DNA of 64,000 nt, from NCBI GenBank assembly GCA_964619725.1, contig CAZUFC010000009.1, positions 32,001-96,000 of the forward strand. Reading direction: 5' to 3'. Shown piece after piece: positions 4,688 through 59,229 of the stretch (position 1 is its first letter; the number at the start of each line of letters is the position of its first letter). The DNA comes from an uncultured bacterium (GTDB lineage: Bacteria; CSSED10-310; CAZUFC01). Made by a program: the position numbers and the translations under genes. The notes under the pieces were generated by a model that saw only the letters and a list, made by a program, of their open reading frames with translations, was not told the DNA's origin and did no database searches.

Positions 4688-4791
4688 GAACTCCTCCCCC
4701 ATGAATTGTCTTCATCTCCCAAACGATGGAAAAACTATTTTTTGATCTACCAGAATCATTTTTCAATAAAATGAAAGGATTACCAATTATG

Positions 4792-30027: not shown

Positions 30028-33000
30028 TGATTGACCTTCTCCATTATTTCTTCGCCGAATGGCGAGAATTTCTGTATTCGGGCGTTCAGACTGTCCGTCA
30101 CGTAAAGGTTGCCTTCTGCGTCAAAGTCTATTCCTATCGGCCAGTTGAATTGTCCGCTTGCCGCTCCTGCGCTCTCCCATACCGCCAGCAGGTTGCCTTC
30201 AAGATTGTATATCTGCAGACGATTATTCCGGCTGTCGGTCGCAACAAGCAAACCGTCAGGACTCATGGCCAGGAAAGGCTCCGAATAAAACTCTTCCCAT
30301 CCCAGAACATACCAGTCCGCCTGATGCTTTCCATCTTCGTTAAAAACGGAAATCCTCTGGTTGGCCGTATCCGCCACATAAACCTTTCCGTCATTTCCCA
30401 GCTCTATGCCGACCGGCTCGAATAACTTGCCCGGTTCATCCCCTTTTTCGCCCCAGAACCTGCTGTTCTTTAAATCAGACTCTACCTTGTGCACCCTCTG
30501 CAATCCCGTGTCGACTATGTACATTACACCCTTTTCGCTCACCGCTACGTCTTTCGGCGCCCACATGTTGTGAGGACTGCGCCATTCCGTTTTAAATTTG
30601 CCTTCTGAATCGAATATCTGTATGCGATGATTCCACGTGTCGGCGACATAAACATCGCCATTCCCGGCGATTCCCAGTCCTACCGGTGTATGAAATTCTC
30701 CCGGTCCTTCGCCTCTCTTTCCCCATTCCGTTATAAACTGACCGTTTAAATCAAATTTCTGGATACGGTGATTCTGACTGTCCGCTACGTATACATGTCC
30801 GTCAGGCGATACGGCAATATCTTTCGGGTCCTTGAATTCTCCCGCTCCTGAACCGCTCCTTCCCCATATCTTTAAAGCCTTCTTGTCCTCCAGCGTCGTC
30901 ATACCCTTCTCGTTGACGACTACGCGTCCCTTTTCCTTCGGTATGATAAGGCTGGGATCACGACGATAGGGCGCGACCTGGTTCTTTTCCATTTCCTGAT
31001 TTATCTCGAATATGTTCACCTCATTCCTGTCATAAACCAGTTCACCCAGATTCTTGAATTTCTCCCGTCCGTTCTGATCGTACGAATAAAATTCCTTGTT
31101 CTCCAAAGAACCGATAAAAACATACCTTACGTCATATTTCCTCAACAAATCATATACTTCCTTCGTGTCCAGACTCTTATACATAGTCCTTACATCATTT
31201 GTCCGGTCACCCGATTTCTTCCAGCTCCAATCACGCCACAATGCTTCATGATTTCCCCATCCGATCACCGTCGGAAAACCGGTCATAGTCGATACCCGGC
31301 CGTGATAACTGTAAGGCGCTCCAGTCGCCTCCAGCACTACCGGCTCATCCTCCAGGTTCTCCATCATCCACTGAATCGCCTTGTAATCCTGAGGAAAACG
31401 TTCCCTTATGTATGCGAAACCGTTCAATGTAGGACGACCCATCTTCTTCTCAAAATAATCCGTCTTTACTCCTATCGCCTGGATGGGATAAATCATGGAC
31501 GCAGCGAATAAAAAAACCGTCCCGAACCGGAATATGTTGGCCCATACCTTCTTGTCGCGCTCTGCAAAGGCGCTGAATACATAATAAAATGAAGCTGCAC
31601 CCGACAGACTGAGAAATATCCAGGCTACATAATAAAACTTGAACACCGTATTCATCCGGGCCGCACTGACTCCATAAAAGTCCTTGATGTATACGAATTC
31701 GCAACCCAGCAGGACGGAAAAAGCCACCAGAATTAACGACATGTTCAGTTTCTCGTGACGCTCTCCTTTATGAAAAAAGAGAAGATATGCCGCCGCCAGA
31801 AGCAGAAATGACAATAAACTTATCGTGAAATTCTGGAAAATAACGCATGTGCTCAACATCGCCAATACGGAAACGATCAAACCGATGAGCTTGCCCTTCT
31901 TTACTAAAGACGACCGGTATATCCAGATTACCGCCATGAAAAAAGCCGCCAGAAAAATCAGGAAAAAATGTATGGTTAGAAACTGACCCACCATGGAACG
32001 ATGATGAGGTTCCAGAAACTTAAGCTTCGCTGCAGGCGGCGAATAGTGCATGAAAAACGGTAAAAAAAGCACGAAACGTATCAATACGAAAATGATTCCA
32101 AGACTCAGAACCCAACTGACTGCCGTTTTCACCCTATCAGGTGCCTTCCATGTGGCGTGAACAGGATCATAGTGAAACAGAACCCAACTGACTGCCGTTT
32201 TCACCCTTTCAGGAGACAAAATGCCGACGACGATGAACATCACTCCGGCTAAAAGGAAGTAAGTCGGAAGGTCCCAATAATTGCCGCAGATAAGACTGCC
32301 TAAGGAAATCGTGAAAAACAGAAGCGCAAGTCCGTTCGTTTTTTCCTTTTTTACCCATTCCCACACCGGTTCGCGGACGTTTTTAAAAAACATGAAAAGA
32401 AAATGCAAAACCAGCAGCGAAAGAGGAACGGCCAGCAGATGAGCATGAAGGTCCCCCAGAATGTAACTGAATATAGGCGTTTCATTTATTGTCGCATCCA
32501 CTTCCTTGGAACCCGGCGTTCCCGGCGGAATCGTCAACGTCAGTATGTCGGATGCCGGACGGTCCTTGATTAATCCCTCACCTCCGAACAACTTCTTGAA
32601 AAATTCCACGAAATACTTGTAAATGTGAGTCTCGCCGTCTACCGTTATCTGATGCTTCGTTATGACGCGAGAACCCTTCCATAACTCCAGCGGACCGAAT
32701 TTCTTCCCGGACAACAGGTACAAAAATCCGTAAAGATTGCCCATGACGTTCAAAAACAAAGCCGCCGCTACGCCGATCAGCCTCTTTCCCGTTAAATTGT
32801 AGAGCAGAGAAAATGCCGCCGTGATCGCCGAAGCGAATATCATGCATAACGCAAGATTGTAAGCCTTCCAAGGCATAATCGCCGCCAGCTTCAACGGCAC
32901 AGCCTGCACAAAATATCCGTAATAATAATAATTTATATAATTTTCAGGCCCGGAAAACCATACGTCAGGAGGAGGCAGACTGTCCGTACGCAATATGGCA

Positions 33001-33422
33001 TGAAAAAACGCCATGTCTGGAAATTTCTCCGCCGCATATAAATTCACGTCATAAGATATCTCGGGATTATAAGAACGGATGAACGCAAACAGCAGAAAAG
33101 AAACGATGAAAAGTCCCTCAATCAGATAAATCAGGTTCCGCTTTTCACTGAATAATCCCTTAATGTCCTCGCTGTTCTTCCGGTATATTAAAAATGAAAG
33201 ACACCCTAAAAGCGCCAGGATGAGTCCGATGGTCCAACGAGTAAAAGGAAGAATACCAAGAATGGGCAATATCCACACCAAAAAAGAAAGAATTACGGGG
33301 CCCAGAATCTTACCGATCCCATATCCTTCATCCCGCTCCCGGCGAAATATCAACCACGTTATCGGCAACGTCAAAAAATGAATGATCTCAACGACTATTA
33401 AAAAAGTAAGCGTTTCTTTCAT
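30024..33422 (-). CDS. DUF2298 / Chlor_Arch_YYY-like polytopic membrane protein fused to C-terminal NHL beta-propeller
   Basis: EKFPDMAF, PPPDVWFSG..INYYYYG, GDLHAH, NYWDLP, RMNTVFKFYY, TVIGWGNHE motifs; NHL repeats (YVADTWNHRIQ); likely start MKETL at 33422. Confidence 0.82.
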   Translation of the reverse strand: MKETLTFLIVVEIIHFLTLPITWLIFRRERDEGYGIGKILGPVILSFLVWILPILGILPFTRWTIGLILALLGCLSFLIYRKNSEDIKGLFSEKRNLIYLIEGLFIVSFLLFAFIRSYNPEISYDVNLYAAEKFPDMAFFHAILRTDSLPPPDVWFSGPENYINYYYYGYFVQAVPLKLAAIMPWKAYNLALCMIFASAITAAFSLLYNLTGKRLIGVAAALFLNVMGNLYGFLYLLSGKKFGPLELWKGSRVITKHQITVDGETHIYKYFVEFFKKLFGGEGLIKDRPASDILTLTIPPGTPGSKEVDATINETPIFSYILGDLHAHLLAVPLSLLVLHFLFMFFKNVREPVWEWVKKEKTNGLALLFFTISLGSLICGNYWDLPTYFLLAGVMFIVVGILSPERVKTAVSWVLFHYDPVHATWKAPDRVKTAVSWVLSLGIIFVLIRFVLFLPFFMHYSPPAAKLKFLEPHHRSMVGQFLTIHFFLIFLAAFFMAVIWIYRSSLVKKGKLIGLIVSVLAMLSTCVIFQNFTISLLSFLLLAAAYLLFFHKGERHEKLNMSLILVAFSVLLGCEFVYIKDFYGVSAARMNTVFKFYYVAWIFLSLSGAASFYYVFSAFAERDKKVWANIFRFGTVFLFAASMIYPIQAIGVKTDYFEKKMGRPTLNGFAYIRERFPQDYKAIQWMMENLEDEPVVLEATGAPYSYHGRVSTMTGFPTVIGWGNHEALWRDWSWKKSGDRTNDVRTMYKSLDTKEVYDLLRKYDVRYVFIGSLENKEFYSYDQNGREKFKNLGELVYDRNEVNIFEINQEMEKNQVAPYRRDPSLIIPKEKGRVVVNEKGMTTLEDKKALKIWGRSGSGAGEFKDPKDIAVSPDGHVYVADSQNHRIQKFDLNGQFITEWGKRGEGPGEFHTPVGLGIAGNGDVYVADTWNHRIQIFDSEGKFKTEWRSPHNMWAPKDVAVSEKGVMYIVDTGLQRVHKVESDLKNSRFWGEKGDEPGKLFEPVGIELGNDGKVYVADTANQRISVFNEDGKHQADWYVLGWEEFYSEPFLAMSPDGLLVATDSRNNRLQIYNLEGNLLAVWESAGAASGQFNWPIGIDFDAEGNLYVTDSLNARIQKFSPFGEEIMEKVNQ
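32106..32207. repeat. In-frame 30-bp perfect direct repeat, 72-nt period
   Basis: CAGAACCCAACTGACTGCCGTTTTCACCCT at 32106 and 32178; encodes RVKTAVSWVL twice. Confidence 0.9.
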
Positions 33423-33820
33423 AGTATTCCCCCTCTTGAAAAACCGCACGGTTTTTCGCCGAAATACTTCTGCGCAGCGGAGTATAACACTATGTCAAGT
33501 TCTGTGCAATGACAGAATTGTCCTTGACATAACCACTGATCGACATGACCGGATCGGCTTTTCATTTCCTCTTCACATCCCACCCTTTTCTCATTTTTCT
33601 CCGTCCACGAGCACCGATTTTTATCGAATGACAAGGCAATACAACGACAGGACCGAGTCCGGAAGGGACGCCGATTCAAAATTTTTGAATGGACGACCAG
33701 GCAAAAAAATATTTGATTTCCAATCAACGGTAATCCTATAATGCATTGATTAAAAAGGGTTAACCAGTGGTCAAGCCAGGCATCAAATTCAGATTTGCCG
33801 ATCATTTCAAATTACCAAAT

Positions 33821-36848: not shown

Positions 36849-39161
36849 ATGGCTCCCAACTGCCTGAAATTTAACATGAAAGAGCTCAAAGAATTCCTGC
36901 AATTAAAAAGGAATATTCAGAATTCAGAATACCTGGCAGATGCTTTCAAAATGGCGGCACGGTTTTTGATGGATGTAATTGGTTTCGAAGAGTTAGGTTT
37001 AGTTGTCAAAAAGGAACAGAAAGGAATTGATTACAGCTTTTACAATTATGATAAGTCGGGTTTTAAGCAATCTTCAACCTTACCCAAATCTATTCAACCA
37101 TGGAATCAAGCGCCGGAACTTTTGAAGAAAGCAAACGAACCGGTTACCCTTCTAAGGATTAAAAAAAATTCAAAATCGGAACCAATATGGTTATGCTGTT
37201 GTAATGGTGAAACTTCATTACAGGCTGCTGGAATGCTTGCAGGAAAAATATCGGAAAAAAAACCTGAATTGGAAATCATAAAAGAAATAATGGTTGAGAC
37301 TTCAACTCTTCTGTATTCTCTGTTTCCCGAACCGAGAAGGAGCGATCCAGATAAAGTGATACCTTTCGGAAAGAACGGAGAAGCCGATCCCAGGACTCCT
37401 TTTATTGAGAGAACGATTAACATGATTACCGAAAAACTTAACCCTAACGCAACAGCAGTGGGAATACTTGATAATACTGAGGAAATGCTGATAGTGCGCC
37501 AGAAATGGTCTCGGGGATTGGAGGGATTCCCTGACGAACTAAAGTTTGTTCCCAGTAAAGGTATAACAGGGAGAGTATTGAGTGAATTAAAGACTGTTAT
37601 AATTGAAGACATTTCAAAAATACGCAAGGAGGACCCGCAAGCTTATATTTTAGCTCCTTTTACGGGGGTGCTGTCTTCCATTGCAGCGCCTGTAAAACGA
37701 GGAAGAAGATTGTATGGTGTATTGGTAGTTGATTCCGCCCGTCGTTCCGCATTCGATGAAAAATCCAGAGAGTACATTACTGAAGCGGCAGAAGAATTGG
37801 GAATGCATCTTGCCCGGATAGAAAATCAGGAACGACAAAGAAGGACGGAAGAGCAAAGAAAAAGTTTCGATCATCTCCATGAAATAATGAGCAGCGTGGC
37901 TTTACAGTTAAGTGAGCTTGCTTCGACTCAAGGTATTTTTGATGAGATTTCAGGAAAGCTTGCAAACGTAATTCCGTGTGACGGTTGCGGAGCTTTTTCT
38001 CTTTCTAATGACGGATCAACTGTTGAAATAGTCGCCCATCACAACCTTCCAATCCAAAGTTTTCACAGATTCAGAAATCGACTTGCACGAAGCCCGATCG
38101 GTGATGTAATCAGAGAAGGAAAAACATATCTGGAAGCCAATGCTCAGGGTCCAAGAAGCATGCCCGTATTTACGAACCTGTTGAACTGGCTTGAATTCAA
38201 GTCATGCATTATCGTTCCCATTCTACGTGCTGAAAATATGCCTTTAGCTTTGATGGCCATACATGAACAGCCGAATAAATATTCAGATATTCATTTAGGA
38301 GAATTGTTGCAGGTGGCTGGACTCCTGACGGTTATGGAACCCTTACGAAGGTTTGAAGATACAGTTCGACGGATAGCGCCCAGCTTGAATTATGCTTTAC
38401 TTTCAGCCGGGGCTCATCATGAAGTGAAAAACGCGTTGCATGTAATGAATCCGGCTTTGTTCGGCTTCAATGAATTACTGGAAAAATCGCCCGAGGAAAT
38501 CATAAATATTCTAAAGATCGAAGATCAATTTCAAAAATATAAAAACTGGGCTGCAGATGCATTGAATCAGGAAGAGCAAATAAATCGCTGGATAAGCAAT
38601 TTAGTCGGTTATTTAAAGGTATGCGGCGAACAGCGTGTGGAACTTCGGCTTTTCGAGTTAATAGAGCAAGCGATGTCTGCAGTAAGATTCCAGGCGGAAA
38701 ACAGAAGAGTAAACTTAGATATCGATGGTGATGACTCCATAACAATAGTGACTGAACCTGTCAGGTTGAGGCAAGTACTCGTAAATTTGTTATTAAACGC
38801 CATATATGCAGCCTCTATAGGACCTAATAAAGATAATGCAAAAGTGAAATGTCTGTTTTTTCTTTTGGAAAATGATGTTGACGAAGAAATAATTATTGAA
38901 ATCAACGATAATGGTCCAGGAATTTCTAAAGGACTAAAAACGAAAATATTTCGTCCTGGTTTTACTACACGAAAAGAGGGGGGGACAGGTCTCGGTCTCT
39001 GGATATGTCGCTTGTTCGTTGATGAGTTGAGAGGGCATCTCGATTTTGAATCAATCATAAATAAAGAAACAACGTTCATAATTAAATTACCGTTAAATTT
39101 GGATGACGATTTCTCATTGTCATCAGGTAGAGGCGGAGGACATATTGATGAATATGGGTAA
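36849..39161 (+). CDS. Cytoplasmic GAF-GAF sensor histidine kinase
   Basis: GAF signatures (KGITGRV, SSIAAPV..LYGVLVVDS..AF); H-box HHEVKN, N-box VNLLLNA, DNGPGI, FTT and GTGLGL; no TM segments seen. Start may be 36877. Confidence 0.9.
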   Translation: MAPNCLKFNMKELKEFLQLKRNIQNSEYLADAFKMAARFLMDVIGFEELGLVVKKEQKGIDYSFYNYDKSGFKQSSTLPKSIQPWNQAPELLKKANEPVTLLRIKKNSKSEPIWLCCCNGETSLQAAGMLAGKISEKKPELEIIKEIMVETSTLLYSLFPEPRRSDPDKVIPFGKNGEADPRTPFIERTINMITEKLNPNATAVGILDNTEEMLIVRQKWSRGLEGFPDELKFVPSKGITGRVLSELKTVIIEDISKIRKEDPQAYILAPFTGVLSSIAAPVKRGRRLYGVLVVDSARRSAFDEKSREYITEAAEELGMHLARIENQERQRRTEEQRKSFDHLHEIMSSVALQLSELASTQGIFDEISGKLANVIPCDGCGAFSLSNDGSTVEIVAHHNLPIQSFHRFRNRLARSPIGDVIREGKTYLEANAQGPRSMPVFTNLLNWLEFKSCIIVPILRAENMPLALMAIHEQPNKYSDIHLGELLQVAGLLTVMEPLRRFEDTVRRIAPSLNYALLSAGAHHEVKNALHVMNPALFGFNELLEKSPEEIINILKIEDQFQKYKNWAADALNQEEQINRWISNLVGYLKVCGEQRVELRLFELIEQAMSAVRFQAENRRVNLDIDGDDSITIVTEPVRLRQVLVNLLLNAIYAASIGPNKDNAKVKCLFFLLENDVDEEIIIEINDNGPGISKGLKTKIFRPGFTTRKEGGTGLGLWICRLFVDELRGHLDFESIINKETTFIIKLPLNLDDDFSLSSGRGGGHIDEYG

Positions 39162-42100
39162 CGGCATTGGATTTTCTGCAAGAAATGAAGAAAAAATCCT
39201 TTTGATTGATGACGAAGAAAAGGTTCTAAAAACGTGGATTCCCCTAATTCAGGATTGGGGTTATAAAGTTTCTGGCGCCGGAACTTTGGATCAGGCAAGA
39301 CGTTTGTTGAACAACGACCATTTTGATGCAATTGTCCTGGACCTGAGATTAAAGGAAGGGGACAGGGCCGGGCTTGATTTTCTTAAAGAAATCCGCAGAG
39401 AATGGCCCAAGATTGCTGTCCTTGTTCTGACCGGATATGGCAAAGAACTGCTAACTATCAGAGATGCTATGCATCTGGGAGCCGATGAATATTGCGAAAA
39501 AGGAGAAGTGCCTGCCACTATAAGGACTCATCTGAATCGCGCCATAAAACATCAAAACATGAAAAACGAGCTGGAAAGCATCCATAGAGTCCGGGAGGAC
39601 CAACTTAAAGCATTGAGCAAACTGACTGAGCAGGTCAGTCGACCAATGGCCGGTGGAGAATTAACGAAAACGTTCGTTGAGTTAGCAATAAAGCACACGG
39701 GTTGTAAATACGGAACTGCACATCTTGTGGACAAAGACAGGGTTACTATTGAGTATTACTCGCATGGTTTGACTCCGTGCAAACCTGAAGATGTTTTCAT
39801 CGTCGGAAGAAAATGCCCGGCGCTGTCAAACAGACGAATGGACAAAAATGAAGAAATCGACAATTCGAAAAGTTCCAAAAAACATGTCTACTGGATTCAT
39901 TACAAAGAAAAACCACGTTCGCTGTTAGCAATCCCCATGCTCTACAAAAACAATATTATGGGCGTTCTAAGCATTGGCGATGATAAACCTCGCATTTTTA
40001 AGCAGGATGAAATACGTTTTCTTGAGATTCTTGCTTATCAAGCTGCGATAATTGCCCAAAGCAATTTGGATATCTGGGAAGCAAAAGCGTTAAATGACCT
40101 TGACGATAAACTCAAGTTTTCCTATGATCATCAGGAATATTTAACGAAGACGGCAAACTTCATCATGAAATTTTTTGAAGCAGAAAATTTACTTATATAT
40201 ATTCCTCCTGATAATTTCATCTGTTTGCCTGATGAAAAGAAACGGTCCGATTCGCTTCAAAATATGGCAAAGCGAATAGCTTCTGATTCGGGAAGTTCTG
40301 AAATATATTCCTGTCACCATCTACCGCTTCAAGACGGCTTCAAGACAATGCTGGGAGTCCCGTTAAATTTCGGAGATGAGAGATTGGGTTCTTTAGTGCT
40401 TGCAGATCGAAAACAATCGGCAAACTGGGAATGTCGATTTTCCCGATATGATGAAGCGCTTCTTTTAGAAATGAGTGAATGCCTGGCTGCAGCTATTTCC
40501 AGGGAAAGACTTCGCAATATTGTTGAGCAAAGAAACAGGGAGCTCAAAACGCTGAACAGCATAAACGATGAACTGAATAAAACAAACAATTCTGATCAGG
40601 TCATTCGTTTAATAGCAAAACAGACTAAAGACCTGCTTCGAGCACGTGAGTGCAGCGTTTTTGCTCTTGCTGACCACGAGGACCTCTATAACCTGGCGAG
40701 GCAGAAAATTTTTCCTCTGGAAAAAATTAAAGAACCTACTTTCCTTCTCCGAGCGACTACTGATGAATCATTAAGCGCTCTGGAAGGCAAAGTTTTTTAT
40801 CAATTCGGCGAATCATTGACAGGACGTCTTGCGTTATTACCGGGCTCATATTGTAATAATCATTTGTCGGAAACAGAACATGTTCATCCCAGATATGCTC
40901 CGCGCCTGAATTACCACCATTTTATGGGTATTTCTCTCCGTTCGACCAGAGGCGATGTTATCGGCGCCATTAAAGTTATGGACAAGCATGACGAGAACGG
41001 TGAATTGACGGCAGACGGTTTCGAACCTCAGGATGAAGCCCTTCTCCAGGATATTGCATCACAGGCTGCTATTGCCCTGGAAAAAGCCCTCCTTATGGAA
41101 AAAATTCAATTAACTGAAGAGCGCTGGCGGACCCTGCTCAACTTTACGGACACCCTTCAGCATTCGCTTCGTGAGGAAGAAATATTATATATGTTTCTCA
41201 CGGGTCTGACGATTAAGGAAGGTCTTGGCTTCAACAGGGCGATTTTACTGATGCCGGATGAAACGGAAGAAAATCTTCAGGGCAACATGGCAATTGGACC
41301 CGCTGATGAAAGTGACGCAGAACGTATCTGGAACGAACTGAATGAAATTAATTTCAGTTTTGAAATGGCGAAAAGGACCTATTATGAGCAGGGTTACAAT
41401 CGGAACAGCCCGATTCAACAGTTGGCGAATAATATTTCAGTGCCGTTGGATATTAAAGACGACATTTTTCCGCGCGCGACGTATTATCATGGAAAATCCA
41501 TAAGGATAGACATGGAAGTAACCCCTGCAAAAGTCTTCCAGGATTACCTTGAAAAAATTAATACAGGAGCTTTCGCCCTGGCGCCTCTTATTGCAGGCGG
41601 TAAAATACTGGGCGCTATCCATGTCGATAATCGTTTTAATTCGCGTCCGATCACAGATGAAGACATGGATGCTTTAGAAATTTTCACGGCAAAAGCCGCC
41701 GGCGCTTTGAATAACGCCCGGTCTCTTGAAGAAGCAAGCAAAGCAAGCTATATTGATTTTACTCAAACCGCGCATTCATATGCCGACAACGTTTCTGCAA
41801 TAAGGAATGTTCTGTCATCCGCTATGGATTTTGCCGTAAAATCACATCCGACTGACGGAAAACTGATGAAATACCTGGAACGAATTTCGAGCGATATGAA
41901 TAAATTAGCCCGGGTATCAAAGAATATTACATTGCTGAGCAGAAGCTCTAAACTTTCACCAAAGCCCATCGATATTAACGAAATTTTGGAAAAGTGGAGT
42001 GAATCCAAAACCGAAAGTATCAGGAAAAGGATAAAGTTATCTATTGATTGCAAAGAGAAGGTCCTCGCCGATTCAAAAAAATTAAAAGGCGTGTTGGATG

Positions 42101-42447
42101 AATTACTGAATAACGCTTTACGATATTCGCCTGACGACACTAATATTTCGGTCAAAGCTGTAAAAACAGGGAAAGAAATTTTCCAGCAGTTAACATATCC
42201 GATTTCAAGACATGAAAATTGGATTCATCTTTCTGTTGCGGATTCAGGACCTGGTATAAATAATGAAGAAAAAAGAAAGATTTTTTTGCCGCTCGTATCA
42301 GATCAGAAAGAACTCGGAAGAGGCATGGGACTGCCGATAGCAAGAAAAGATATGGAAGATCAGGGCGGATTTTTATTTGAGGAGGGCGTTCCCGGCAAGG
42401 GTGCGCGTTTTGTCATTTTACTTCCGTTATATCTGAAAGGATGTTAA
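39148..42447 (+). CDS. Hybrid kinase: N-terminal receiver, multiple GAF domains, histidine kinase
   Basis: GGAGGA RBS before ATG 39148; LLIDDE..VLDLRL..LTGY..K receiver; several GAF repeats; TAHS H-box, ELLNNA, DSGPGI, GRGMGL. Confidence 0.88.
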   Translation: MNMGNGIGFSARNEEKILLIDDEEKVLKTWIPLIQDWGYKVSGAGTLDQARRLLNNDHFDAIVLDLRLKEGDRAGLDFLKEIRREWPKIAVLVLTGYGKELLTIRDAMHLGADEYCEKGEVPATIRTHLNRAIKHQNMKNELESIHRVREDQLKALSKLTEQVSRPMAGGELTKTFVELAIKHTGCKYGTAHLVDKDRVTIEYYSHGLTPCKPEDVFIVGRKCPALSNRRMDKNEEIDNSKSSKKHVYWIHYKEKPRSLLAIPMLYKNNIMGVLSIGDDKPRIFKQDEIRFLEILAYQAAIIAQSNLDIWEAKALNDLDDKLKFSYDHQEYLTKTANFIMKFFEAENLLIYIPPDNFICLPDEKKRSDSLQNMAKRIASDSGSSEIYSCHHLPLQDGFKTMLGVPLNFGDERLGSLVLADRKQSANWECRFSRYDEALLLEMSECLAAAISRERLRNIVEQRNRELKTLNSINDELNKTNNSDQVIRLIAKQTKDLLRARECSVFALADHEDLYNLARQKIFPLEKIKEPTFLLRATTDESLSALEGKVFYQFGESLTGRLALLPGSYCNNHLSETEHVHPRYAPRLNYHHFMGISLRSTRGDVIGAIKVMDKHDENGELTADGFEPQDEALLQDIASQAAIALEKALLMEKIQLTEERWRTLLNFTDTLQHSLREEEILYMFLTGLTIKEGLGFNRAILLMPDETEENLQGNMAIGPADESDAERIWNELNEINFSFEMAKRTYYEQGYNRNSPIQQLANNISVPLDIKDDIFPRATYYHGKSIRIDMEVTPAKVFQDYLEKINTGAFALAPLIAGGKILGAIHVDNRFNSRPITDEDMDALEIFTAKAAGALNNARSLEEASKASYIDFTQTAHSYADNVSAIRNVLSSAMDFAVKSHPTDGKLMKYLERISSDMNKLARVSKNITLLSRSSKLSPKPIDINEILEKWSESKTESIRKRIKLSIDCKEKVLADSKKLKGVLDELLNNALRYSPDDTNISVKAVKTGKEIFQQLTYPISRHENWIHLSVADSGPGINNEEKRKIFLPLVSDQKELGRGMGLPIARKDMEDQGGFLFEEGVPGKGARFVILLPLYLKGC

Positions 42448-42454
42448 AAGGTCT

Positions 42455-43291
42455 ATGTGCAATAAACTGAGTCTCCTTATCGTAGATGATGATCCCCGTC
42501 AACGCGTAACCCTTCATGAAGGAATCGAGGAAATGGGTATCTTTGATGAAATAACGGCCGTCGATTCTGAGAAGAAAGCTATTGATATTATTGAAAACCA
42601 GAAGCTGGCATTCAATCTAGTCCTTCTTGACCTGCGGATGCAGAGAAAAGATTCAGGATTAAGATTTCTGAAAAAGTTGAAGAATAATCCGGATTATAAA
42701 GATACGGAGGTCATCGTTCTTACTGTCGTTGAAGATGTTCCCGTACGAAATGAGGTGATGAGCTCCGGAGCTGATTATTATATAGAAAAGTGCCAGAGTT
42801 ATGCCCCATTGGATATTATCAGGGAACGCGTGCGAGGTTTATCAGATAAAATAAAATTAAAACGATTGCGGCAGACAATAGAGTCAAATTCAACGGAACT
42901 GAATCAAAATAAGGCATTTGTCGCATTTCCTTACCAGCCATGTTTCGATGATGTTTTTCATTTGATTAAAACTGTTTCATATCAGGCACAAGTACAAACA
43001 GTCAGGGCAGACAATATATCAAAATCCGTCCCTTTGACTGCTTCAATGTTTAAAGCAATCGAAGAATGTTTGTATTTCATTTGCGACATAACACATTCAA
43101 ATCCGAATGTTATGCTGGAGTTGGGATACGCTATGGCGCTTCACCCGGAAAGAGAAATATTGATCTTATGCGATAAAGCCTCTGAACTCCCTGTTGATAT
43201 TCGCGGATACGTAATTCAGAAATATGATCGTATCAGTTTACAGGGAACTCTGAAAGGAATCCTTGAGAATTTTTTTTCGATTCAAAAATAA
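42455..43291 (+). CDS. Response regulator receiver fused to nucleoside-deoxyribosyltransferase/TIR-like domain
   Basis: LIVDDD..LLDLRM..LT..K receiver; C-terminal AFVAFPY..RAD..AIEEC..FICDITHSNPNVMLELGYAMA. Confidence 0.8.
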   Translation: MCNKLSLLIVDDDPRQRVTLHEGIEEMGIFDEITAVDSEKKAIDIIENQKLAFNLVLLDLRMQRKDSGLRFLKKLKNNPDYKDTEVIVLTVVEDVPVRNEVMSSGADYYIEKCQSYAPLDIIRERVRGLSDKIKLKRLRQTIESNSTELNQNKAFVAFPYQPCFDDVFHLIKTVSYQAQVQTVRADNISKSVPLTASMFKAIEECLYFICDITHSNPNVMLELGYAMALHPEREILILCDKASELPVDIRGYVIQKYDRISLQGTLKGILENFFSIQK

Positions 43292-43497
43292 TGTTAAGTC
43301 CGAATTGAAAATCAGCCTGCAAATAACTATAAAAGAAAATTGACTATTTCCTGAAAAGCAGGTAATAAAAATAAAAGGGTGGGGCCAGTCGAGTCATCAC
43401 GTCGACCGATTTTTAATTTTACTTAGAAATCTTAAAATGACCCCGGGTTGATAAAAACAAAAAATTCTTTTTTCTAATTTTTCTATGCCAGTCAAGA

Positions 43498-45045
43498 ATG
43501 GGATTGGGTAGGTGCATGATGTGCAGTAATTCAGAATTATTTTGCAGCTTCTATTCGTTCAGAAGCAGCATCGAAAGATCAACCGCATTGCTTAATACAG
43601 CTTTAATATTAGCTAAACGAGCTTTCAGAGTAATCGTCATCGATTTCGATCTGGAAGCTCCGGGATTAAGTTTCATCGGCGAGCTTTATCCTGAGGGTGA
43701 AATCAAAAAGCAAGCGGGTGTTCTCGAATATCTTCATTCGTCCCTGGTGGAAAGCAGTGCGCTTGAGATTAAGCAATGTGTCGTTAAACCCGCGGCTTTC
43801 CCTGATGGTTGTTATTTCATGCCCGCCGGACGTTGGGATAATCAATATGTTAAAAGGTTGAACGAATTGGACCTGGGAAAAAGGCTTGAAACTGATACAA
43901 AAACCGTTACCCAATTGTTGGAATTATTTCGACAGGAAATTATCGAATACTGCAAGCCTGATATCGTTTTGATAGATTCCAGGACAGGACTTTCCGATGA
44001 GGGAGGTCTTTGCGTCCTTCAAATTACCCAGTATGTGTTCCTTATCGGAGCATTGAGCGTTCAGAATATCGAAGGATTATCTCTGGTCAAGCAACTGATA
44101 GAATCATTCAAATTTAGTAACCGACATTACCTGAAAACCTTTTTGGTCGCTTCACAGGCGCCGGAAGGAGAAGATGTGATTCGGGAAGAGATGTTTCAAG
44201 TTATGCACGAGAAGTTGGGGAAATATCCTGATGTAGTCGTTCCGTATAATCCTCGTTTGGCATTCAAAGAAGAAATCGGCTTTATTCAACGGCCGCATTC
44301 GTTATTGGCAAAAGCTTATGCTTCCATTGCCGATAAGATATGCAGCGTAAGACGAAATGAAAAAGCCGGTATTTTAAAATCAAAGGCTGAAGAAAAAATG
44401 GACAGGGGAGATTATGAACAAGCCTTGAAAAACATTGATAGGGCGCTTGAATTAATTCCGAATGATCCGGACTCTTTATTCATCAGAATCAAGGCGCTTG
44501 AAAGGCTTGGTCATATTAAAGCAGCGGATCAGATGAGAAGAAAAATCTTAAAAGAAAAGGCGATGCCGCCCGAAAAAATAAAGGACCTGGTAAGTGAGAT
44601 AGCTTCGCTCGACCGTTGGTATGATGAACTGTCTGAGATACTGAATGAAAATGTAAAGATATACGGAGATACACCGGAAGAACCGATGTTCCGGTTGTTG
44701 CGAGCGAAAACAGGCGCAAGGATCGGCGTTCTTCACTTCAGAGCTCTTGAAGACCTGGATTGGCTGATAGAACGGGGCTTTGAACTCGAAAGCGATCTTA
44801 TTATAACCAGGGTCAGACTCCTTAGAAGCTACAATAGAACGGATGAAGCGCTGGAATATCTTGCCGAGTCAGTAAAACGTTATCCGGAGGATCATAAATT
44901 GTTAAAAACTCTCGCTTTATTGCTTGCAGACCTCGATTTGAATGAAGAATCATTGAGAGTTATAAAACATGCTTTAATAGCGATGCCGGATGATGAAGAT
45001 TTGATAAAAGCCCTGCAGAGAATGGAACACGAATTTAAAGAATAG
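43498..45045 (+). CDS. ParA/MinD-like ATPase domain (degenerate Walker A) with C-terminal TPR repeats
   Basis: FYSFRSSIERST replaces FYSxKGGVGRT; VIDFDLEAPGL, MPAG and VLIDSRTGLSD conserved; TPR-like GDYEQALKNIDRALELIPND. Start may be 43516. Confidence 0.8.
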   Translation: MGLGRCMMCSNSELFCSFYSFRSSIERSTALLNTALILAKRAFRVIVIDFDLEAPGLSFIGELYPEGEIKKQAGVLEYLHSSLVESSALEIKQCVVKPAAFPDGCYFMPAGRWDNQYVKRLNELDLGKRLETDTKTVTQLLELFRQEIIEYCKPDIVLIDSRTGLSDEGGLCVLQITQYVFLIGALSVQNIEGLSLVKQLIESFKFSNRHYLKTFLVASQAPEGEDVIREEMFQVMHEKLGKYPDVVVPYNPRLAFKEEIGFIQRPHSLLAKAYASIADKICSVRRNEKAGILKSKAEEKMDRGDYEQALKNIDRALELIPNDPDSLFIRIKALERLGHIKAADQMRRKILKEKAMPPEKIKDLVSEIASLDRWYDELSEILNENVKIYGDTPEEPMFRLLRAKTGARIGVLHFRALEDLDWLIERGFELESDLIITRVRLLRSYNRTDEALEYLAESVKRYPEDHKLLKTLALLLADLDLNEESLRVIKHALIAMPDDEDLIKALQRMEHEFKE

Positions 45046-45164
45046 ATTTTTCCGGCATTGATCAAAAAAGCTTCTTATAAAATTATAAAACGGCGCTTTT
45101 CATTTCGGATCGTTTCATTATTTCCTGAGCGCTCACATCAGGTTGCATCCCGCCCTCCCCAGGA

Positions 45165-45192
45165 TTGACAAGCAGCCGGCAAAGGTTATAAT
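45165..45192 (+). promoter_or_regulatory. Consensus sigma70 promoter upstream of the BREX-like operon
   Basis: TTGACA-16 bp-TATAAT. Confidence 0.65.
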
Positions 45193-45480
45193 GAAATACC
45201 GTTTTCCGATGGGAATCGTAAAAGAAAAGCGGCATCCTGATCGCGACAAAAAATAATAGAATTTTCGAGCGTGATGACAGACTGTGTTGAAGGGATTGGA
45301 TTAAAAAATATGGATGCAAGAATGAACGAGGTCTTATCAGATGCGGTTTTATGAAGTCCTGGGGATTTCAGACTTGCCGTAGTTGCCGCCTGACAAAGCG
45401 CCTCTAAATGTATGAAGTTATGAAAATAAATCGTCATGATTTCTGAAGATATGGATGAGAAAAAGACTCACGGGATATAG

Positions 45481-46638
45481 ATGAAGGACAGCGACAAAAA
45501 AGGTTATCGACAAAAGTTAAGAGACAATTTCGTCCGAGGGGATGCAGCTTCACGGACGGATTCGGCGCTTCTTAAACTTTTGTTGACTTATGCCTTTCCG
45601 CGAAAAGAGATCGAATCGACGACAGAAAGTCTGCTTTCGGAATTCGGAAGTCTTTCTTCATTACTGGAGAGCCCGCTTGAAAGGCTCCTTGAACATAATG
45701 AAATAAGTAAAAGAAATGCCGTGCTTATCAAGCTTGTAGATTGGATTCGAATTCATTATGGTCCGAAAATACGGGAAAAAAGAAGGTATAAAGCGCCGCC
45801 CCAGGCCTCACTGTTTGATGAAGATTCTATTAAAGGCGTTGACCGATCATCTTCAGAAGTTATTAAATCTGATGCCAAAAAGGCAAGACCCAGGAGCGGG
45901 ACATCTATGTTCGGAAAGGCCATGCTGAGAGAAGCAATAGAAATCCTGCCCGATCTCCCCGACACCGAATCACTGGAAGAGGTTCATGCTTTTCTTCGTG
46001 ATAACCTGCATTTCAGTGCGGAACAGACCCGTCGACGCAACGCCTATTACATAACACGCAGGATGTTTCCAGCCGGTTATGCCGATAAGCCTTTACTTTA
46101 TTTCGCCAGGGCGTTTCCTGACAGCAGGGAACTGCGTGATGTTTGTTTTTATCGTTTTCTCAAGGCTGAACCGCTTGAAGTGGAAATAATCGAAAAGCTT
46201 ATTCTTCCCAGTATGGGAGCTGGACGTTTAAACCGTGAAAACATCCGGCTGCTGATTACCGAAAAATATCCTGATGCGCGAAGTACAAAAGATTGCGCCC
46301 TGGCAGTCGTCGATGCGTTAACTGCTGCAGAAATAGTCAGGTCTGATCGCCGAAAGATTACTTTCTCCTACCGGGACATACCCGTAAAGTCGTTTGCTTT
46401 TATTCTGCATAGCGAGTTTCCTGAACCGGGCATGTATGACATCCGAAAAATCGAAGAAAACCGTTTGGTACGGGCGATGCTCTGGAACCCGGAACGAATT
46501 CTCCACGCATTGTACGAACTGCGAAATCGCCGACTCATCAGTAAAGTATCGGAAATCGACAACATACGTCAGTTTTCGACGAAGCATAAACTTGCAGATA
46601 TCGTCGAATTGATATTGTCACGAGGTAAGCCATCATGA
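45481..46638 (+). CDS. RadC N-terminal (HhH-like) domain fused to a BrxA-like domain
   Basis: Residues about 7-85 GYRQKLRDNF..D..LLKLLLTYAFPRK..LLSEFGSL..LL..NAVLIKLV match the RadC N-terminus; no JAB motif seen. C-terminal assignment as BrxA-like rests on operon position and helical character. Confidence 0.6.
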   Translation: MKDSDKKGYRQKLRDNFVRGDAASRTDSALLKLLLTYAFPRKEIESTTESLLSEFGSLSSLLESPLERLLEHNEISKRNAVLIKLVDWIRIHYGPKIREKRRYKAPPQASLFDEDSIKGVDRSSSEVIKSDAKKARPRSGTSMFGKAMLREAIEILPDLPDTESLEEVHAFLRDNLHFSAEQTRRRNAYYITRRMFPAGYADKPLLYFARAFPDSRELRDVCFYRFLKAEPLEVEIIEKLILPSMGAGRLNRENIRLLITEKYPDARSTKDCALAVVDALTAAEIVRSDRRKITFSYRDIPVKSFAFILHSEFPEPGMYDIRKIEENRLVRAMLWNPERILHALYELRNRRLISKVSEIDNIRQFSTKHKLADIVELILSRGKPS

Positions 46639-47159
46639 AGGCGACCGACATCATCGAGGCCGTTCGTCAAAAGCTGACCGTGCCGACGGGACGTCACTTG
46701 TACGGCGTTCTGGGCTCATACAGGCAGCTTGATTCGTTTGCCGGAAAACTCCGTCAGGCCAGGACTATGGAAGGCATCCCTTTTCCCGGACCCGTAAACG
46801 TCAACCGGGGCATTCTTAACGCCATTCCGGACAGCGAATTCAAAAAACTTGCGGAAAACGAAGCCATACGCCCGGAACCTACGGCCGCTCATGTCGCCAG
46901 GGCATTCGAAAAATTCCTGAAGGAAAACCTCACCGGCAAAGGACTCCTGGTTCTCGCGAAGCTGGAGATGCTTTTCGCCTACAACATCGAACTGGGACTT
47001 CTGCGAACCATGGCTGCGGATGAAAACAGGGCGCTGCTTCTCCTGCCGGGACGACGGTCTCGCGGCCGGGTCATCATGTTTCATGAAATGGAGCAAGGCG
47101 ATTATACGCTGCCCAAAAACCTGATCGCTGAAAATCATCTGTGGGAAATTCGAGAATGA
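46635..47159 (+). CDS. BrxB/BrxF-like small BREX accessory protein (degenerate P-loop fold)
   Basis: VNVNRGIL, LLVLAKLEMLFAY and LLLLPG pattern; ATGA overlap with the upstream gene; size and position. Confidence 0.55.
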   Translation: MKATDIIEAVRQKLTVPTGRHLYGVLGSYRQLDSFAGKLRQARTMEGIPFPGPVNVNRGILNAIPDSEFKKLAENEAIRPEPTAAHVARAFEKFLKENLTGKGLLVLAKLEMLFAYNIELGLLRTMAADENRALLLLPGRRSRGRVIMFHEMEQGDYTLPKNLIAENHLWEIRE

Positions 47160-47452
47160 AAAACGCCGTCAGAAAAAGACGAACGCAATGGTTTAATTCA
47201 CGCGATATCCTTATTGCTAAAAAAACTGATTCAGAAGAGTTTAAATCCATTATAGCGAAAGAACGATTAAAAGCGGAAACCGATAAAACGCCTGATAAAT
47301 TTATCGAAAATCTTCCTGAGATCATGAAAAAATTTGACAAGCACGGAAGCGATTATCCCGAGCATGACAAGCGCGATTTCATTAATCAAACCAGCGGCTG
47401 TATGAAGGATAGTCCGATCAGCCCCGGTGAACAGGGAAATATAGTCGCATGA
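47156..47452 (+). CDS. Small hypothetical protein
   Basis: ATG overlaps the TGA of the previous gene (ATGA); 98 aa; no recognisable motif. Confidence 0.5.
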   Translation: MKNAVRKRRTQWFNSRDILIAKKTDSEEFKSIIAKERLKAETDKTPDKFIENLPEIMKKFDKHGSDYPEHDKRDFINQTSGCMKDSPISPGEQGNIVA

Positions 47453-47495
47453 GGAGCCTGAAACGACTCGAACTGAAAGATTGGGAACTAGTAAA

Positions 47496-50033
47496 ATGAA
47501 CAGAAAAAAAAACGAACCAGAATTACCTTTCCCGAAAAAAATCCCAAAGATGCCGGAAGGGTACTATTCCGGCGATAAACCGAATCCAAACCTCCGGGCT
47601 TTCGTGGAACGGCATATCGAGGAGCGACCTTATGACCCGGAAACCGACGACTATGACGTGCCGGCCTTCGACAAGCCTATCGAAACCACAAAAGCAACGG
47701 CTATCTACAACATGCACACTTATTGGTCAAAGAAGCCGCATGATGCCATACGCCAATATATAAGACATTACACCAAACCAGGCGATTTGGTTCTCGATCC
47801 CTTCTGCGGAGCAGGAGGTACAGCAATAGCTTCAATAATGGAGGGAAGAAAAACTGTAGTTTCTGATTTGTCTCCATCTGCAACTTTTATAACATCCAAT
47901 TCACTTCGAATAATTGATTGTAATGATTTCAAAAAGGCAGTCATAAAACTTGAGAAAAAAATTGGTTCATCACTTGTGGGGCTTTTCAATTCGCCATGGT
48001 GTGACGGTATTGTAAAATCCGTTATTTATTCAGAACGGTTTAGGTGTTCGAGATGCTTTAAACCATATGCATTTATAGAAGCTAACAAAGGAGAAATTCG
48101 TAGATTTCGTGGGCGTAAGAAGGCAAAAGCAGTATGTCCTAATTGTGGTGAAACACTAAAAACTAATATTGATGAAAGATTAGGTTTCGTGCCGGCAGAG
48201 CTTCACATTGCAAAATCCATTAAATCAAACAGAACAAAGAAAATTAATGTTATAGGTAATAATTCTGTTGCAAATCGCTTCGCAGTTGTTCCTAGCAATT
48301 TACCAGATCGTTTATTAGTTAAAATTGATGGAAATATACAGCCACGTCTTTCCAGGAATCTTAAAAAATCAGGTGTGGAAGTTGTGGGTCACTTATTTAG
48401 TAAAATTAATATTGATGCTCTTTTAAAAATTGAAGAAGGTATTACATTATTACATGAAGTCTCAGAAAGTTCAAAAAGTTTACTTATGTTAGCTTTGCAC
48501 TCAATTCTTTATAACTGTACAAGAATGTATCGTTATCGATTGTATACAACGGGCGGTGGAGGATTTAGCGGTACTTATTATATCCCACATCTTTCCAAGT
48601 GTATAAACCCATGGTCAGCGTTTATTAAAAAATGTTCAGTTCTTGAAAATGCCATTAATGAAATTAATACATCAGATAAGGGTGATTTTGCCAATAGTAA
48701 GCTTCCGGTAGTCGTTTCTTGTGAATGTGCTACAAAAATTTCAGATAAAATACCAGCTGATAGCGTAGATTATGTTTTTACGGATCCTCCATATGGTGGT
48801 ACATATCATTATGGAGCACTTAATTTAATCTGGGAAACTTGGCGAGGCTGCAATCTTAATTGGAGGACCCGAGAAATTGTTATTTCTGAAGACGGTTTGC
48901 ATGATTACCAAGAATGGTTGAACAGAATGAGTAAAGCTATGGGTGAAATTTATAAGGTTCTTAAGCCCGGTAGGTGCGTAACACTATGTTTTCATGGAGA
49001 AGTTGCTCTGTGGCAAGCAGTAAATGACATCATGGCAGAAATTGGCTTTTTATCAGATAAAAGAGAGGAATCGTTATTTATTGATACAAAGCAGAAGTCC
49101 TATAACCAGTTAACAGGTTCTACCTCAAAAAAGCGAGATTTAGTTATAAACTTCAGAAAACCAAAACCCAATGAGTTGATTGGAGTTTTCGATTTCGCTT
49201 ATGCAGAACATAATAAAACCTTCAACGAAAAAGTACGAAAAATTATCTACGATTATCTATGTACAAATCCCGGCAGCACAAAAGACCGCATATACGACCA
49301 CGTAGTAAGCCGCATGGTCCGCAAGGGTGAAATGGAGGCGCACGATTTCGATGCAATCCTTAAAACCGTAGCGGAAGAAGTGACGACTCCGGTGATGAAA
49401 AGCCTTTTCGAGAAGAGGGAACCTGACCTGTTCGGCACACATGAGATAAAAAGGTGGTATCTCAAGGAAAGCGAACTGGCGGAGGTTGATGAAGCCGAGA
49501 CAGCGAGTGAGGATTCTGCGGCTGAAAAATTACGGGAATTTATAGCGAAGAGAAACAGCGAGCATCCGGAAGATGAGGGCGTGCATTACAGCGATCTTTT
49601 CGAGCATTACATTTACGCAGTCAAAGATACGCCGAGGCGGCGTCTTATCGAGTTTCTTCCGGATTATTTTTATAAAACGGAACAGGGAACCTGGCGATTG
49701 CCTGCTTCAGAAGAAGAGGAGTGCGCTAAGCTTGAAGCCAGGGCAAAAGGATTAGGTCGTCGCATCAAGCGTTACATTGCACAACTCCGACAGGGGGTCC
49801 TCATTCCGGAGAAGGAGCAACCCGGTGATGCAACGCTGGCGGAGTGGATACGCTATTGCAAGCGTTCGGGGATGTATGAGCAGGGAAGATTTTTGTATGA
49901 GAAGGGCGGCATTAATCCCGAAAACCTGCCGGAGGCGGCAATGGCGGATGTTGAGGAAGATTACCAGGTATGTGTGCGTATGCTGAAGCGCGGAACGGAC
50001 AGGCCGGGACGCAGCAGGCGCCGGGAGAGTTAA
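47496..50033 (+). CDS. Amino-DNA methyltransferase (N6A/N4C; PglXI-like) of the BREX-like system
   Basis: YNMHTYWSKKPH, VLDPFCGAGGT (motif I), Zn-ribbon CSRC/CPNC, DYVFTDPPY (motif IV), VLKPG; long C-terminal extension. Confidence 0.85.
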   Translation: MNRKKNEPELPFPKKIPKMPEGYYSGDKPNPNLRAFVERHIEERPYDPETDDYDVPAFDKPIETTKATAIYNMHTYWSKKPHDAIRQYIRHYTKPGDLVLDPFCGAGGTAIASIMEGRKTVVSDLSPSATFITSNSLRIIDCNDFKKAVIKLEKKIGSSLVGLFNSPWCDGIVKSVIYSERFRCSRCFKPYAFIEANKGEIRRFRGRKKAKAVCPNCGETLKTNIDERLGFVPAELHIAKSIKSNRTKKINVIGNNSVANRFAVVPSNLPDRLLVKIDGNIQPRLSRNLKKSGVEVVGHLFSKINIDALLKIEEGITLLHEVSESSKSLLMLALHSILYNCTRMYRYRLYTTGGGGFSGTYYIPHLSKCINPWSAFIKKCSVLENAINEINTSDKGDFANSKLPVVVSCECATKISDKIPADSVDYVFTDPPYGGTYHYGALNLIWETWRGCNLNWRTREIVISEDGLHDYQEWLNRMSKAMGEIYKVLKPGRCVTLCFHGEVALWQAVNDIMAEIGFLSDKREESLFIDTKQKSYNQLTGSTSKKRDLVINFRKPKPNELIGVFDFAYAEHNKTFNEKVRKIIYDYLCTNPGSTKDRIYDHVVSRMVRKGEMEAHDFDAILKTVAEEVTTPVMKSLFEKREPDLFGTHEIKRWYLKESELAEVDEAETASEDSAAEKLREFIAKRNSEHPEDEGVHYSDLFEHYIYAVKDTPRRRLIEFLPDYFYKTEQGTWRLPASEEEECAKLEARAKGLGRRIKRYIAQLRQGVLIPEKEQPGDATLAEWIRYCKRSGMYEQGRFLYEKGGINPENLPEAAMADVEEDYQVCVRMLKRGTDRPGRSRRRES

Positions 50034-50047
50034 CGGGGTATTTGACG

Positions 50048-56207: not shown

Positions 56208-56219
56208 GAGGAAGAATCC

Positions 56220-59129: not shown

Positions 59130-59229
59130 TGACGGTCATACTTAAATTCCAATCAAATTTTTCTCTTTTGAAACCGATGCAATCCGACGTTTTTTTGCCC
59201 GGAATCAGCCTGCAGGAGGAGATATCAGG

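Follow-up and report, generated by a model that had tools for sequence, protein, structure and literature searches.

A putative cytoplasmic phosphorelay with a TIR/NDT-like enzymatic output next to a BREX-like operon in an uncultured bacterium

What might a soluble signalling module that ends in an enzyme be doing directly upstream of a BREX-like operon? This question is raised by four adjacent genes on contig CAZUFC010000009.1 of an uncultured bacterium (GenBank assembly GCA_964619725.1; GTDB lineage Bacteria; CSSED10-310; CAZUFC01), of which a stretch of 64,000 nucleotides, positions 32,001 to 96,000 and hereafter the window, was analysed. The genes encode two histidine kinases (HK1 and HK2, genes 1 and 2), a response regulator (gene 3) and an ATPase-like protein with tetratricopeptide repeats (gene 4). 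A preliminary description, made from the sequence alone, had suggested that they could form a phosphorelay-gated defence system. In our analysis, the module is best explained as a cytoplasmic His-Asp phosphorelay that would have an enzyme, and not a transcription factor, as its end point. Beyond this, we tentatively favour the view that it is a conflict system resembling Detocs, in which phosphorylation would gate an N-glycosidase acting on nucleotides or NAD+; we regard the chance that this view is right as slightly less than even.

The preliminary description had reported four co-oriented genes, and all four open reading frames (ORFs) were recovered by ORF listing at the same coordinates on the plus strand, spanning positions 36849-45045 (Table 1). 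Pfam and NCBIfam scans agreed with the domain builds that had been proposed, namely a GAF-GAF kinase, a REC-multiGAF kinase, a REC-NDT/TIR-like protein and a degenerate ParA-TPR protein. Transmembrane segments had been said to be absent, and indeed the highest Kyte-Doolittle means over 19 residues were only 1.61-1.75, with all of these maxima falling within core strands of GAF or ATPase domains. Likewise, the Pfam and NCBIfam scans of the module proteins found no DNA-binding family, as had been claimed for the output of the module, and the only apparent output is an enzyme-like domain of the TIR/NDT superfamily that has kept its catalytic Glu. The reported co-orientation with BREX also held, the downstream PglX-like, BrxC-like, PglZ and BrxL genes being on the plus strand as well.

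Table 1. Positions of the module genes and of neighbouring features within the window.
Feature	Position	Strand	Remarks
HK1, soluble histidine kinase (gene 1)	36849..39161	+	770 amino acids; Pfam, NCBIfam and PDB profile matches
HK2, soluble kinase with N-terminal receiver (gene 2)	39148..42447	+	Pfam, NCBIfam and PDB matches; longest ORF 39103-42447 (1114 amino acids), database form begins at M16 (39148)
Response regulator with enzyme output (gene 3)	42455..43291	+	278 amino acids; begins 7 nt past the HK2 stop
Spacer between regulator and gene 4	43292..43497		206 bp, AT-rich, GC 0.325
KGGVGR-family (ParA/MinD-like) ATPase domain with TPR array (gene 4)	43498..45045	+	515 amino acids; database form begins at M8 (43519)
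Perfect sigma-70 consensus, TTGACA-16-TATAAT	45165..45192	+	12/12 matches, consensus scan only
Atypical BREX-like operon	45481-61284	+	PADLOC, Pfam and NCBIfam matches
AAA_21 ATPase and DUF4276 pair	49970-51873	+	PADLOC HEC-01A/B match; MADS3-like

The view that the relay ends in an enzyme is based on the response regulator. Its receiver domain (REC, residues 1-117; Pfam, 6.4e-19) contains the signature residues D11, D12, D59, T90 and K112, which are invariant across 3 orthologues. A linker helix of 32 residues (118-149; predicted local distance difference test score, pLDDT, of 87 in the full-length model) joins it to the effector domain (residues 150-278), and judging by the model this helix may be of the kind that transmits phosphorylation-dependent dimerisation. 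Pfam yielded only a partial match of the C-terminus to CAP12/Pycsar TIR domains (1e-6, only 44 residues covered). Residues 140-278 were used as the query for an exhaustive HMMER search against 1.84 billion cluster representatives, which returned 3353 relatives at E<=1e-3. The best 150 of these, minus the very long repeat proteins P0189 and P0201, were scanned further (n = 148). The Pfam family Nuc_deoxyrib_tr was matched by 103 of the 148 and CAP12-PCTIR_TIR by 19, and 140 matched the PADLOC model PDLC00733, 'Effector TIR'. A profile built from 71 members matched Cap12/TIR-STING (2.2e-5), DNPH1/Rcl (5.6e-5), NDT (1e-3) and PycTIR (3.3e-3) in the PDB, and these matches place the family between TIR and NDT/DNPH1.

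In the profile alignments, the Glu of the family motif NVxYELGYA is aligned with the motif Glu of the matched enzymes, including Cap12 and DNPH1, in which we take this Glu to be the catalytic residue. The regulator has the motif in the form NVMLELGYA (nt 43106-43132), its Glu being E222, a position that is nearly invariant among the 148 scanned relatives. R184, D186, D211, N218, G224, P246, D248 and Y257 are also present, and all ten nearly invariant positions of the family, E222 among them, are kept in the regulator. An AlphaFold2 model of the effector domain alone (pLDDT 93.3) had as its best Foldseek matches the TIR domain of SfSTING, a cyanobacterial NDT, the TIR domain of MyD88, SPARTA TIR-APAZ, MilB and DNPH1 (including 7un8, 8pqr and 8w8m), with E-values from 2e-5 to 3e-4 and query-normalised template-modelling scores (TMq) of 0.54-0.74, up to 0.74 for SPARTA TIR-APAZ. 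By model and Foldseek, the domain thus has the flavodoxin-like TIR/NDT fold. With the full-length regulator as the query, receiver matches (PleD, NtrX) dominated the fold search and said nothing about the effector, which is why the domain alone was used. Because of these profile and fold matches and of the conserved positions including E222, the label 'NDT/TIR-like' is correct, and the domain looks catalytically competent as far as its residues can tell.

Two other occurrences of this effector type are of interest for the way in which it is controlled or located. P0247 (293 amino acids) is a single-chain fusion of a GAF domain with a TIR/NDT-like domain, the sole such protein among the effector-domain relatives, and its architecture is in keeping with effectors of this type being gated by GAF domains. 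On a plasmid of Sphingorhabdus sp. (locus L016, 4974-6603), two tandem genes encode proteins of ~285 amino acids, each with a TIR/NDT-like domain belonging to this family at its C-terminus, and directly follow a type II restriction-modification (RM) system.

The two kinases have the parts that such a relay would need. According to Pfam, HK1 contains two GAF domains (~187-323 and ~361-495), preceded by an N-terminal region without assignment (residues 1-185), and a HATPase_c domain (residues 637-750) in which the N, G1 and G2 boxes are intact. Its NtrB-like H-box, AHHEVKNAL, spans residues 522-530 (nt 38412-38438), the candidate phosphorylated His being residue 523/524. The C-terminus of HK1 is AtoS/ZraS-like by NCBIfam, and its PDB kinase matches are ZraS, ThkA and KinB. 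In HK2, numbered from the start of the longest ORF at 39103, Pfam identified a REC domain (7.7e-18; residues 32-144) with the acidic pair DD36/37 and D80, four GAF domains (~186-317, 344-465, 498-659 and 785-870) and a HATPase_c domain (990-1109). The HATPase_c domains of HK1 and HK2 scored 1.3e-20 and 4.8e-16, respectively. The sole candidate for an H-box in HK2 is AHSYADNVSAI (residues 890-900, candidate His at residue 891), which we regard as a putative H-box by motif comparison with those of the CckA type. The named relatives of the kinases are all bacterial. The elements of a classical phosphorelay are therefore in place, that is, kinase ATP-binding boxes with candidate His residues on the one side and a receiver with acidic pocket, Asp, Thr and Lys on the other.

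We propose that an intracellular cue sensed by the GAF domains would lead to autophosphorylation of the kinases and to phosphotransfer to D59 of the regulator. The phosphorylated regulator would then change its dimeric or oligomeric state via the linker helix and bring TIR-like domains together, as TIR enzymes require. The domain activated in this manner could cleave the N-glycosidic bond of NAD+ or of another nucleotide, and this cleavage might result in growth arrest (abortive infection) or in the production of a signal. The receiver of HK2 may serve as a step in the relay or, in the way of DtcB in Detocs, as a phosphate sink that keeps the system from firing by accident. If gene 4 belongs to the module, its product, whose P-loop appears to be dead, would most likely be a non-catalytic scaffold or a sensor adaptor.

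Among validated systems, the closest to the module on our comparison is Detocs. As described by Rousset et al. in the available part of their preprint (bioRxiv 10.1101/2023.01.24.525353), Detocs comprises a kinase with TPRs (DtcA), a stand-alone buffer receiver (DtcB) and an effector in which a receiver is fused to a PNP domain; defence is lost when the His of the kinase, the Asp of the receiver or the effector is mutated. Effectors are interchangeable, with endonuclease or membrane domains, for example, in the place of PNP, and the kinds named there are PNP, endonuclease, TOPRIM and transmembrane (TM). As far as that text goes, the module shares with Detocs a soluble sensor kinase, a regulator in which an N-glycosidase-type effector replaces the DNA-binding domain, and the presence of an extra receiver and of TPRs within the system, and its effector would likewise be of the swappable kind. 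It differs in that its effector belongs to the TIR/NDT superfamily instead of being a PNP, in having two kinases that would sense through GAF domains in place of one TPR-kinase, in the fusion of the extra receiver to HK2 where DtcB stands alone, and in carrying its TPRs on a separate pseudo-ATPase protein, neither kinase having any.

The regulator itself has the DtcC-type build, a REC domain fused to an effector of the cell-arresting type with no DNA-binding domain. However, the module has no TPR-bearing DtcA kinase and no counterpart of the stand-alone DtcB receiver; neither the ORF list nor Pfam revealed a stand-alone REC gene within 36-45 kb. PADLOC gave no Dtc-named match for the regulator, it being not established whether PADLOC-DB 2.0.0 includes Detocs models. 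Since two architectural features are missing and no match to a Detocs profile was obtained, the module would appear to work like Detocs but is not classed as a member.

A second point of comparison is provided by Cap12 (TIR-STING) of CBASS and PycTIR of Pycsar (PF10137; 7un8, 8jsj). The fold and the catalytic-Glu motif are common to these proteins and the regulator, and in each case assembly is governed by a sensor or regulatory domain to which the effector domain is fused. In the module this regulatory domain is a phospho-receiver and not a cyclic-nucleotide sensor, and the sequence similarity is distant; Pfam, PADLOC and NCBIfam scans of the window proteins detected no cyclase gene near the module. 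The third comparison concerns the NTP-dependent conflict systems that Kaur, Burroughs, Iyer and Aravind (2020, PMC7159879) studied in multicellular bacteria. In the portion of that article available to us, these are described as containing inactive MinD/ParA-like domains, nucleotide-processing effectors of the TIR or DrHyd type, TPRs and sporadic receivers, organised around vWA-MoxR, iSTAND or GTPase cores, and no histidine kinase is reported among them. On this description, the module has in common with them an inactive MinD/ParA-like domain, a TIR-type effector, TPRs and receivers, whereas library scans found none of these cores in the module and histidine kinases are present in it. Our literature search yielded no description of a two-component defence built on a receiver-TIR protein, nor any paper in which receiver domain, TIR domain, NADase and two-component are brought together as one system, an outcome that the supplementary effector table of the Detocs work (Table S5) could change.

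Gene 4 requires separate consideration, because its membership in the module is uncertain. The protein consists of an ATPase domain (residues ~14-280) and a TPR array (~290-510). Pfam recognised the TPRs and gave a weak CbiA match, and the N-terminal domain was identified as a KGGVGR-motif variant AAA ATPase (NCBIfam NF047398; 2.4e-36, 125.8 bits versus a cut-off of 90). The preliminary description had called the protein a degenerate ParA, and this was borne out by its P-loop (FRSSIERST, nt 43558-43584), which reads FRSSIERS where relatives have KGGVGRS; in the wider alignment window, FYSFRSSIERS stands against FYS[YF]KGGVGR[ST]. The pattern KxGxG[RKS] is kept in 113 of 120 family sequences and six others are N-terminally truncated, leaving gene 4 as the only one of the 114 full-length members without it and hence without the KGGVGR P-loop. 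The DFDLEAPG and DSRTG motifs are retained. The gene 4 product is most likely a pseudo-ATPase, because the P-loop motif has uniquely been lost while the other motifs survive.

The family to which gene 4 belongs has connections to defence. Its ATPase core matches the PADLOC model PDC-M28B (2.9e-25, profile positions 132-345 of 438), the B component of a candidate cassette that consists of a small protein (A), a KGGVGR ATPase (B) and a KAP-like NTPase (C). The core of gene 4 is that of B, but gene 4 has no N-terminal extension of the B type, its P-loop is destroyed and a TPR tail replaces the usual C-terminus. No match to PDC-M28A or PDC-M28C was found among the 13 window proteins scanned with models that were strong in the plasmid loci L017, L018 and L020. 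With A and C missing from the window, gene 4 is, on the profile evidence, not a PDC-M28 member. A literature search for 'KGGVGR' or 'PDC-M28' returned no relevant papers. TIR domains occur in 25 of the 119 listed relatives of gene 4, and two of these 119, P0103 and P0104 (621 amino acids), combine a KGGVGR ATPase, a TIR and a REC domain in one chain. Further relatives carry FGE-sulfatase, or NACHT with Mrr. Together with P0247, P0103 and P0104 may be taken as hints, in the manner of Rosetta-stone fusions, that these kinds of domain work jointly.

Members of the KGGVGR family were found in 27 plasmid records. All 7 plasmid loci inspected adjoin toxin-antitoxin (TA), RM, TIR, BREX-2 or integrase genes. 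Plasmid accessory regions are generally rich in defence and TA genes, and this count is therefore weak evidence. At 4 of the 7, the PDC-M28 cassette is complete, with A, B and C all present. One of these, on plasmid pTs417 of Candidatus Thiodictyon syntrophicum (locus L018, 4126-7395), lies inside a BREX-2 operon, where the small protein, the KGGVGR ATPase and the KAP-like NTPase are encoded between pglX and a gene for a 'phage resistance protein'. An ORF with a REC or TIR/NDT-like domain was present in 0/7 of the plasmid loci, so that the tie between genes 3 and 4 has to rest on fusions elsewhere, shared composition and adjacency. A complex prediction for the two proteins returned a score of 0.00, which is no answer and speaks neither for nor against binding.

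These data bear on the possibility that only HK1, HK2 and the regulator form a unit. Gene 4 would then be unrelated to them, left over from a distinct KGGVGR-ATPase defence cassette and either decaying or repurposed, and would lie between the relay and BREX by chance. This view concerns the membership of gene 4 only and is compatible with the other readings, to whose probabilities its own is not to be added; we consider it a realistic possibility, albeit one with clearly less than an even chance. Genes 1-3 are tightly packed, HK1 and HK2 overlapping by 14 nt (from the database start of HK2) and the regulator following after 7 nt, whereas gene 4 comes after the AT-rich spacer of 206 bp and a weak promoter-like site (positions 43263-43292), for which reason it may be a separate transcription unit. 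A remnant is also suggested by the degeneration of the P-loop in just this one of the 114 full-length proteins, by the plasmid members, which have partners of their own in PDC-M28A and PDC-M28C but no REC or TIR-like gene beside them in any of the 7 loci, and by the cassette within the BREX-2 operon, which implies that KGGVGR cassettes lodge near BREX independently. Conversely, the TIR fusions, and the TIR and REC fusions in P0103 and P0104, unite the kinds of domain found in genes 3 and 4. Moreover, the G+C content at third codon positions (GC3) of gene 4 is 0.417, like that of genes 1-3, its ORF is intact over 515 amino acids with its other ATPase motifs conserved, and the part of PMC7159879 referred to above describes MinD/ParA-like domains that are inactive as a feature of conflict systems.

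It should be noted that a considerable number of observations weigh against the Detocs-like interpretation. With respect to the kinases, no Pfam HisKA family matched the regions for dimerisation and histidine phosphotransfer of HK1 and HK2, even at E<=1, and the putative H-box of HK2 is divergent and unusual. No full-length relative of HK2 was found, the best non-self matches having 21-26% identity over 14-75% of the query. With respect to the regulator, its combination of REC and effector domain is shared only by P0131 and P0143, that is, by 2 of the 149 best-listed relatives in phmmer; a receiver was detected in 4/149 with a receiver hidden Markov model, or in 5/148 by Pfam if the query is counted. 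P0131 is on a contig of 1.3 kb and P0143 on one of 17.8 kb, and no proteins from the contig of P0143 were among the matches of gene 4 or HK2. A genome scan on two receiver-domain patterns retrieved 11 loci with generic receivers only, none of them with the effector domain or the ATPase, and each of the window proteins that were checked is alone in its cluster at 90% identity. Similarly, a tblastn search of plasmids with the regulator returned nothing but matches to receivers or effector-domain genes standing alone; one plasmid locus, H1, proved to be an unrelated chemotaxis/Hpt context. The module is thus essentially a singleton, and the exact four-gene combination does not appear, from these searches, to be a widespread family. 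The weakness of the 7/7 plasmid count and the lack of REC or TIR/NDT-like ORFs in those loci belong on the same side.

A rival explanation is an ordinary physiological two-component pathway. In it, a metabolic or redox cue would be sensed by the GAF kinases, the NDT/TIR-like domain would tune nucleotide or NAD+ metabolism or produce a signalling nucleotide for normal cell regulation, and BREX would be a neighbour by coincidence only. Soluble kinases that combine several GAF domains with receivers are widespread in signalling, and all 97 matches of HK2 are generic PAS/GAF kinases. Neither HK1 nor HK2 matches any PADLOC model, and the NDT superfamily also holds housekeeping nucleotide enzymes, the hydrolases DNPH1 and MilB. 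In addition, neither the receiver-pattern genome scan nor the HK2 matches showed the module repeatedly beside defence genes. We nonetheless regard such a pathway as rather unlikely, although it has to be taken seriously. The predominance of the defence TIR-effector model among the scanned effector relatives (140/148) argues against it, as do the presence of Cap12 and PycTIR among the closest solved relatives, the defence-candidate status and TIR fusions of the gene 4 family, and Detocs, which uses the same logic for defence according to the accessible text of the preprint.

The genomic surroundings add evidence on both sides. GC3 is 0.35-0.42 in the four module genes, compared to 0.50-0.59 in the flanking chromosomal genes, and it stays low or mosaic (0.37-0.61) across the BREX-like genes up to 61.3 kb. 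Because of this fall and its continuation through BREX, the module is, by composition, located in an acquired island. The low GC3 that the module has in common with a defence island speaks against a purely physiological pathway, while the separate consensus promoter before BREX is in line with one. The flanks are chromosomal and include molybdenum-cofactor genes, a formate-dehydrogenase-like oxidoreductase and ABC transporters. Nothing useful came of searches for tRNAs, for Rfam families or for flanking repeats of the att type.

The genes of the BREX-like operon are long ORFs with strong domain matches and are for this reason not chance assignments, although the BrxC and BrxA matches are weak. 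For the first gene (385 amino acids), a weak match to BrxA (E 0.0062) is all that was obtained, and two small genes are without assignment. The methylase is of the PF01555 type and matches PADLOC PglXI, a protein of 1445 amino acids has weak BrxC matches only, PglZ is nearest to the BREX-3 model and BrxL is strong; in terms of these profiles, the operon combines type-1 and type-3 features. The AAA_21/DUF4276 pair has the methylase on one side and the BrxC-like gene on the other, and it resembles a defence cassette nested within BREX. A gene for 174 amino acids (46635-47159, plus strand) has a GC of 0.54 and a GC3 of 0.61 among low-GC neighbours, a contrast in composition that may reflect a mosaic make-up of the island. 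Elsewhere in the window, very large NosD/beta-helix proteins and a membrane protein of 1141 amino acids with Chlor_Arch_YYY (DUF2298) and NHL repeats are encoded at 2-4702, 30024-33449 and 61465-63147, all on the minus strand; these proteins point to a Chloroflexota-like host or one similar to it. An archaeal host was considered and rejected, the host being probably bacterial, since MoaA has the better fit to the bacterial model (254.6 versus 205.3 bits), the Chlor_Arch_YYY protein is encoded and the named kinase relatives are bacterial.

Given that module and BREX are co-oriented, adjacent and part of one low-GC island, the relay could also be an accessory regulator of the neighbouring BREX operon, for example by gating BREX through an NAD+ or nucleotide signal; the discussion of the Detocs preprint, so far as it was available (bioRxiv 10.1101/2023.01.24.525353), makes mention of two-component regulation of defence expression. 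We consider this highly improbable. No DNA-binding output was found in the module, and no other BREX locus with such genes turned up in the receiver-pattern genome scan, a search of low power. The BREX island is itself a mosaic, given its range of GC3 and the inserted AAA_21/DUF4276 pair. Furthermore, a gap of 435 bp (45046-45480) with a perfect sigma-70 consensus precedes the first BREX-like gene. This arrangement suggests that BREX is transcribed on its own, and together the gap and the 12/12 consensus provide no indication of co-regulation. The link between module and BREX is probably one of co-location in the island. In the Detocs-like interpretation, the module would be a defensive two-component system that has landed in a defence island beside BREX, and not a regulator of BREX.

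Taken together, the Detocs precedent, the defence-candidate families and the shared island lend partial support to the earlier proposal of phosphorelay-gated defence. The four genes did not emerge from the searches above as a conserved unit. A more far-reaching reading would be that the locus represents an undescribed class of defensive two-component system, in which GAF kinases phosphorylate a regulator of the TIR superfamily that cleaves NAD+ or nucleotides, the dead KGGVGR ATPase-TPR protein acting as an adaptor or phage sensor. We deem this unlikely. If true, it would be the first link of His-Asp phosphotransfer with TIR-type immune effectors, and the principle embodied by Detocs, two-component signalling used directly as immunity, would reach TIR/NDT effectors and GAF-type intracellular sensing. 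It would also offer a tractable TIR-like enzyme with phosphorylation as its switch, in place of an Argonaute or a second messenger of the nucleotide type, and a role would have been found for a pseudo-ATPase of the little-studied KGGVGR family. Should the module instead serve ordinary signalling, it would still document a rare output domain of response regulators, the REC domain being present in only 5/148 of the close relatives, the query included.

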